A stretch of DNA of 64,000 bases from Escherichia phage vB_EcoM_MM02. The notes under the pieces were generated by a model that was given only the letters and a program-made list of their open reading frames with translations, made no database searches and was not told the DNA's origin. The stretch is from sequence record MK373784.1; one strand, written 5' to 3'. This document shows positions 45,506 to 45,961 of this stretch, piece by piece. Within the stretch, counting starts at the first letter, position 1. Every line of letters starts with the position of its first letter. Both the position numbers and the translations under genes were made by a program.

Positions 45506-45961
45506 TTATTTCAGATCTTCGGCCCAATCTAGTTTTAAGGGTTCTTTGTATTCACGGTCGAGAATAACCGGAATAGCTACATCACCACTGAATGATAGTT
45601 GGCCAACGTTATATGATAACGTTATATGTGGAGTGTAGTCGTCGAAATCATGAGTAGCACCTAAAGCTCGTGCGTACTGATGACGACATCTAAGATATTC
45701 AGAATCAAGAACTAAAACCAGTACAGCGCCGTCGTCAGTTTTCCATACCTCAAAGTGTCCTGATTCAGCAACAGAATAACTGCCACTAGATGTAGTATAT
45801 GGTATGTTTACACGCGAATAACAAATTGTTGAATGGAGCTTTTCACGTGGTACTGGATTAGGAATTCTTAATTTACGCTGGAGGTCTTCCAGCGCATCAA
45901 GTGTTAATTCTGAAAACTTAGCTGCGACGTAGAGGCCTTGTGAAAAGTCCTCAAATTTCAT
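45506..45961 (-). CDS. 57B: 2H-phosphoesterase, gp57B/Acb1-like (anti-CBASS cyclic-nucleotide phosphodiesterase)
   Basis: 151 aa; two H-x-[ST]-x motifs (HSTICY, HITLSY); sits immediately upstream of 57A. Confidence 0.7.

Follow-up and report, generated by a model that had tools for sequence, protein, structure and literature searches.

Does the short gene adjacent to 57A in a 64,000-nt stretch of phage DNA (the window, by which we mean the whole stretch analyzed) encode Acb1, the enzyme with which T4 destroys cyclic-oligonucleotide signals of CBASS immunity, as a sequence-only reading had proposed, or does it encode another enzyme built on the same fold? In T4 Acb1, the founding member of its family and the product of gene 57B, the tetrad H44/T46/H113/T115 catalyzes a metal-independent reaction in two steps, with a cyclic phosphate as the intermediate; the bases are stacked against Y12, W74, F107, and W147, and the N6 of adenine is recognized by E141 (PMC9117128). 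Its counterpart from phage FBB1 proved, once its structure was solved, to have a 2H phosphoesterase fold that carries a lid at the C-terminus (PMC9117128), and cleavage of 3'3'-cGAMP and cAAA was also reported for nine further Acb1 homologs (Hobbs et al. 2022, Nature 605:522, PMC9117128). Cleavage activity appears ~15 min into T4 infection, and T4 lacking acb1 suffers a replication defect of more than 300-fold on CBASS hosts (PMC9117128). A transposon screen independently reproduced this conditional essentiality of 57B/acb1, evidenced as depletion on a CBASS host (bioRxiv 10.1101/2025.11.20.689424), whereas T4 can do without the gene on CBASS-free hosts (PMC9117128; bioRxiv 10.1101/2025.11.20.689424).

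Over the 2 kb around the gene, identity is 98.9% to Escherichia phage mobillu and 97-99% to many further genomes of Mosigvirus; judged by its sequence, the window is the genome of a Mosigvirus, a T4-like coliphage. Searches with tblastn uncovered an Acb1 homolog encoded in 1,469 phage records, and a protein at least 99% identical to that of the window in at least 137 phage records; in some, such as E. coli O157 typing phage 6 and ATK48, the identity is 100%.

The ORF adjacent to 57A matches Acb1 along the whole domain

The ORF listing of the window holds a frame of exactly 151 aa at 45506..45961, as the sequence-only reading had it, and places it on the minus strand, on which that reading was silent. 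Its ATG is the first start codon past the in-frame upstream stop, so the N-terminus is not extendable further. The two H-x-[ST]-x motifs on which the earlier assignment had leaned are indeed present, as H43-S-T45-I and H112-I-T114-L, and occupy two of the five histidines of the protein. By itself, however, such a motif pair is weak evidence for family assignment. At least two H-x-[ST] occur in 8 of the 87 window ORFs of at least 100 aa, and the stricter pair, with a hydrophobic fourth residue, in 3 of these 87; the case for Acb1 therefore rests on homology.

Three independent comparisons agreed on this homology. The Pfam family PF23474 (Anti-CBASS protein Acb1) scored 197.3 bits (cut-off 27; E = 1.3e-58), with residues 8-149 of the protein aligned to positions 1-144 of the 144-position profile, that is, the whole domain. 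Alignment with T4 gp57B/Acb1 (NP_049750.1; gene 57B from NC_000866) returned 129/151 identical (85%) and 139/151 similar (92%) residues with 0 gaps (E = 2e-102), which bears out the proposed likeness to Acb1. The best match among solved structures was Erwinia phage FBB1 Acb1 (7T26/7T27; E = 1.1e-58, 63% identity over residues 9-148). These profile and pairwise matches are far beyond chance. With the ORF, the homology, the conserved residues, the purifying selection, and the synteny all observed directly in this analysis, we consider it almost certain that the gene is the Mosigvirus ortholog of T4 57B/acb1, predicted to encode an anti-CBASS enzyme that acts as T4 Acb1 does.

A single-sequence AlphaFold2 model of the window protein was uninformative (pLDDT 39.4, pTM 0.29); the 2H phosphoesterase fold of the protein is predicted with high confidence from the 63% identity to 7T26 over residues 9-148. 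FBB1 Acb1, solved in apo form (7T26) and in complex with 3'3'-cGAMP (7T27), shares its catalytic and ligand residues with the window protein, and both the 2H fold and the lid of the latter can be modelled on its structure. It differs by a one-residue insertion after the W/F73 strand and by a Phe at the W73-equivalent position. Both HxT motifs also align with those of the 165-aa 'Anti-CBASS protein Acb1' of PDB 9Q2G/9Q2Y, but similarity to this protein is marginal (E = 0.007), as befits a distant branch of the Acb1 family. An NCBIfam search yielded no model matching Acb1, Acb2, or IPI, which is a gap in that library and no evidence against the Acb1 assignment. A literature search on Acb1 in Mosigvirus/RB69 returned no paper naming both 'Acb1' and 'Mosigvirus' and no report of a biochemical or genetic test of any Mosigvirus Acb1 ortholog; PMC11780129 mentions both 'Acb1' and 'RB69'.

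Functional residues are kept, and the gene is under strong purifying selection

T4 Acb1 starts with MM, and the window protein is one residue shorter at the N-terminus, so that its numbering is that of T4 minus one. In the alignment neither catalytic histidine is lost: both, together with their threonines, pair with T4 H44/T46/H113/T115. Indeed, the window protein does not differ from T4 at any of the nine named functional residues, namely the tetrad H43/T45/H112/T114, the stacking residues Y11/W73/F106/W146, and the adenine-reading E140; all 22 substitutions between the two proteins fall elsewhere. The likeness to gp57B thus encompasses the HxT/HxT tetrad, the stacking aromatics, the adenine-reading Glu, and the C-terminal lid tryptophan, in carrier phages of different genera (Mosigvirus here, Tequatrovirus for T4). 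Y11, H43, T45, H112, T114, and E140 were also among the invariant columns of a nine-homolog alignment reaching down to 29% identity, which included T4, FBB1, Acinetobacter Acj9, and Aeromonas, Cronobacter, Vibrio, and Klebsiella phages. It is very unlikely that the substitutions relative to T4 have shifted the substrate range, for instance toward cleavage of cGG or of the 2'-5'-linked 3'2'-cGAMP, because none of the 22 touches a named contact residue; if they had, Mosigvirus and Tequatrovirus Acb1 would cover different sets of CBASS signals.

At the nucleotide level, acb1 and T4 57B are ~75% identical (68-83% in 100-nt windows), against the 85% identity of the proteins. Nei-Gojobori counts gave 73.5 synonymous and 40.5 non-synonymous differences (pS = 0.70, pN = 0.12) and a dN/dS of ~0.06, with dS near saturation. 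This ratio indicates a gene held under strong purifying selection rather than a remnant. We also considered, and rejected, recent recombination with T4 as the cause of the high protein identity of 57B and ipI (85-88%, versus 60-65% for 57A, 1, and 3). With a nucleotide identity of ~75% in 57B and near-saturated synonymous sites, stronger purifying selection rather than recent transfer accounts for it.

Gene order, the 57A junction, and candidate expression signals

Mapping of T4 proteins onto the window revealed the minus-strand order 4, 2, 3, 1, 57A, 57B, ipI, trna.4, trna.3, trna.2, which is exactly that of T4. Neighbors and orientation of gp57B are alike in both phages (1-57A-57B-ipI). The block 3-1-57A-57B is kept in T4 and in straboviruses of Acinetobacter, Aeromonas, Cronobacter, Vibrio, and Klebsiella. 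The sequence-only reading had also located the gene directly upstream of 57A. The adjacency stands, but upstream applies to plus-strand coordinates only, as in transcription acb1 lies 3' of 57A. Both genes share one orientation, with 57A directly 5', and the TAA stop and the ATG have one base in common (TAATG; junction AGAATAATGAAA), the overlap being 1 nt in the window and 4 nt in T4. This arrangement suggests co-transcription and translational coupling of 57A and acb1.

Inside gene 1, we located the T4 late-promoter consensus octamer TATAAATA upstream of 57A (Table 1), and in T4 it likewise occurs, 356 nt upstream of the 57A start. Across the window the octamer is not enriched (7 found versus 7.8 expected), so the argument for a late promoter comes from its conserved position. 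This one conserved octamer may be a late promoter of the 57A-acb1 pair, and its position is compatible with the onset of cleavage ~15 min into T4 infection.

Other copies of TATAAATA lie near gene 4 (head completion). One, at 48971..48978 on the minus strand, sits just upstream of the ATG at which homology to gp4 begins, and a second, at 48956..48963 on the plus strand, faces gene 53; together (48956..48978) the two resemble a pair of late promoters placed back to back, an arrangement also seen in T4 (7350-7372 of the T4 sequence compared). The mechanical ORF of gene 4 (48495..49088, minus strand) encodes 197 aa. Its homology to T4 gp4 (150 aa) starts at 48944, and translation probably does not include the 48 extra residues at the N-terminus. 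In the gp4 region there is also a match to Pfam Tn7_TnsA-like_N (E = 3.3e-20).

Downstream of acb1, the spacer that separates it from ipI folds into an RNA hairpin (Table 1) with no U-tract behind it. At the corresponding place in T4 there is a 13-bp hairpin whose stem sequence differs (z = -3.85), and in the two lineages compared it appears to be structure rather than sequence that is conserved. The hairpin may mark the 3' end of the acb1 transcript or act on its stability or attenuation. The conserved sigma-70-like element TTTACA-N17-TACTAT that overlaps it probably serves ipI. A generic sigma-70 scan around acb1 scored 9 promoter-like sites, versus 9.1 in shuffled sequence. Four terminator-like hits were disregarded, all of them within coding sequence and none at the acb1 3' end.

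Table 1. Features of the acb1 locus and the acb2 homolog in the 64,000-nt window
Feature	Coordinates	Strand	Evidence and remarks
acb2 (vs.4) homolog	30831..31091	-	65.5% identity to T4 Vs.4; Pfam PF24729 Acb2_Tad1_hairpin, E = 4.2e-18
ipI (internal protein I), next gene downstream of acb1	45141..45428	-	Pfam IPI_T4, E = 1.3e-50; 88% identity to T4 IPI
RNA hairpin, 12 bp, in the 77-nt acb1-ipI spacer (45429..45505)	45457..45483	-	-18.3 kcal/mol, z = -3.9
Conserved sigma-70-like TTTACA-N17-TACTAT, overlapping the spacer hairpin	45491..45463	-	Promoter scan, T4 comparison
acb1 (gene 57B ortholog), putative 2H phosphoesterase, 151 aa	45506..45961	-	ORF, Pfam PF23474, 7T26/7T27, T4 gp57B, residues, dN/dS
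Gene 57A, tail-fibre assembly chaperone	45961..46191	-	Pfam GP57, E = 5.9e-23; PHROG 1002 tail fibre chaperone
TATAAATA, T4 late-promoter consensus octamer inside gene 1 (candidate late promoter)	46546..46553	-	355 nt upstream of the 57A start

On the other side of ipI, the conserved block contains a divergent member. The trna.3 homolog (44521..44916, minus strand) is 39% identical to T4, versus 84-85% for the flanking trna.2 and trna.4, and nucleotide identity to T4 falls to ~50% across 44540-44850. This homolog, which matches PHROG 1411 (a family of unknown function), looks like a locally divergent or replaced gene in a conserved block. Further on, the window has only two tRNA genes, Arg-TCT and Met-CAT, at 43480..43634 on the minus strand, where T4 has eight tRNAs plus rnaC/rnaD and segB; an Rfam search of the whole window likewise returned two tRNAs only. 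The 5' end of an ORF at 43117..43509 overlaps tRNA-Arg. This ORF probably starts later than listed, and the mobillu annotation has a 345-nt gene there.

Further anti-defence genes in the window

The gene that follows acb1, ipI (Table 1), has a dN/dS of ~0.075 relative to T4. One part of it, at ~45270-45320, shows 88-92% nucleotide identity to T4, well above its neighbors. IPI inhibits the type IV restriction enzyme GmrS/GmrD, and acb1 and ipI are adjacent in T4 (PMC9117128). An acb2 (vs.4) homolog lies ~14 kb from acb1; its mechanical ORF extends to a TTG at 31265, and homology starts at the ATG at 31091. Acb1 and Acb2 (T4 Vs.4) share the target pathway but are unrelated in sequence, and Acb2 is described, in the abstract of PMC10312549, as a sponge that sequesters the signals instead of cleaving them. 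Judged by homology, the phage has both members of the T4-type anti-CBASS pair, Acb1 as well as an Acb2 homolog. The earlier claim that the window holds at least one established anti-defence gene was therefore correct but understated, as ipI and the acb2 homolog are present besides acb1.

Other loci of this part of the genome also depart from T4. The vs.8 homolog (31985..32586, minus strand) appears split: an ORF with a GTG start at 31985..32560 (191 aa) is 89% identical to T4 Vs.8 over 182 aa, and the first 18 residues of T4 Vs.8 match 32533..32586 in another frame. The split could reflect a frameshift, an alternative start, or a sequencing error. Similarly, vs.5 (31143..31311) matches T4 in two pieces. 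Between nudE/e.2 and the tRNAs lie two runs of small ORFs on the minus strand (35226..39131 and 41146..43100). These ORFs matched neither the T4 proteins compared nor any Pfam family, except for the 318-aa ORF at 37050..38006, which matches DUF7277 and DUF7275. We regard these runs as variable regions that could hold further accessory or anti-defence genes.

Alternative readings of acb1

The annotation of this family invites a different reading, in which the protein would be a generic 2H enzyme of the LigT-like 2'-5' RNA ligase or cyclic phosphodiesterase type, acting on RNA or tRNA ends. PHROG 755 is annotated as 'RNA ligase', a product name that RefSeq T4 and several phage records also use, the gene lies near the tRNA cluster, and the protein shows a weak match to Pfam 2_5_RNA_ligase2 (PF13563; E = 0.013, 15.9 bits). 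This score is, however, below the cut-off of 27 and involves residues 70-131 only, whereas the Acb1 model reaches 197 bits from end to end. What the window protein has in common with the LigT / 2'-5' RNA ligase 2H phosphoesterases of PF13563 is the pair of HxT/S motifs together with the 2H fold, the latter judged from homology to 7T26; LigT-type enzymes act on RNA ends and Acb1 on cyclic oligonucleotides (PMC9117128). The name 'RNA ligase' is an inherited fold-level annotation. Moreover, the residues that stack on and read the bases of cyclic dinucleotides are all kept, and experiments on the T4 ortholog have reported no activity other than cleavage of cyclic oligonucleotides, with the attendant anti-CBASS phenotype (PMC9117128; bioRxiv 10.1101/2025.11.20.689424). 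We hold an RNA-end enzyme to be most improbable.

An inactive or decayed gene, persisting only through its place in the essential 57A transcription unit, could be tolerated if acb1 is as dispensable on CBASS-free hosts as it is in T4. Nevertheless, the frame is intact and of full length with all catalytic and ligand residues in place, and the dN/dS of 0.06, the at least 99% identity in 137 records, and the homologs in 1,469 speak of a maintained gene; such a remnant has next to no chance of being what we see, and the selection and conservation data refute it. A true Acb1 ortholog might instead have its main targets beyond CBASS, such as the cA3 of type III CRISPR, or be a liability sensed by Panoptes-type guards that use decoy nucleotides. 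In favor of the former, Hobbs et al. noted that cAAA cleavage may let the phage evade type III CRISPR (PMC9117128); as to the latter, plasmid-expressed acb1 lowered colony formation together with the OptSE operon, but deletion of acb1 in T4 was without effect on Panoptes defence (PMC12657218). Nothing in the window bears on targets beyond CBASS, which would be an extension of the main explanation rather than an alternative to it, and we deem it unlikely that the gene serves chiefly in either of these ways. The preferred reading remains that of an Acb1 ortholog directed at CBASS.

Proposed action of the window Acb1 and its significance

The enzyme activity, substrate range, anti-CBASS phenotype, and transcription unit of the window acb1 are what we infer from its relatives. 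We envisage a small metal-independent 2H phosphoesterase, made during infection, that would bind 3'-5'-linked cyclic di- and trinucleotide CBASS signals containing at least one adenosine, such as 3'3'-cGAMP, cUA, or cAAA. By straining this adenosine, Acb1 would make its 2'-OH attack the adjacent phosphate over H43/T45/H112/T114, linearize the ring via a 2',3'-cyclic phosphate intermediate, and release the linear product; cleavage of 3'3'-cGAMP by the window protein is predicted on this basis. Once the signal is gone, CBASS effectors would stay inactive and abortive infection would be averted, and in hosts devoid of CBASS the gene would be dispensable. Its expression is probably linked to that of 57A by translational coupling and driven at least partly from the late promoter proposed inside gene 1.

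The window acb1 is an already known protein in an already sequenced phage lineage; it adds nothing new in this respect and opens no new biological question. Its practical value lies in annotation, since the protein, which ought to be named Acb1, goes under 'hypothetical protein' or 'RNA ligase' in most public records. This is relevant to host-range prediction in phage therapy or biocontrol: equipped with Acb1, an Acb2 homolog, and IPI, the phage is expected to withstand many of the CBASS systems whose signal is 3'3'-cGAMP, cUA, or cAAA.
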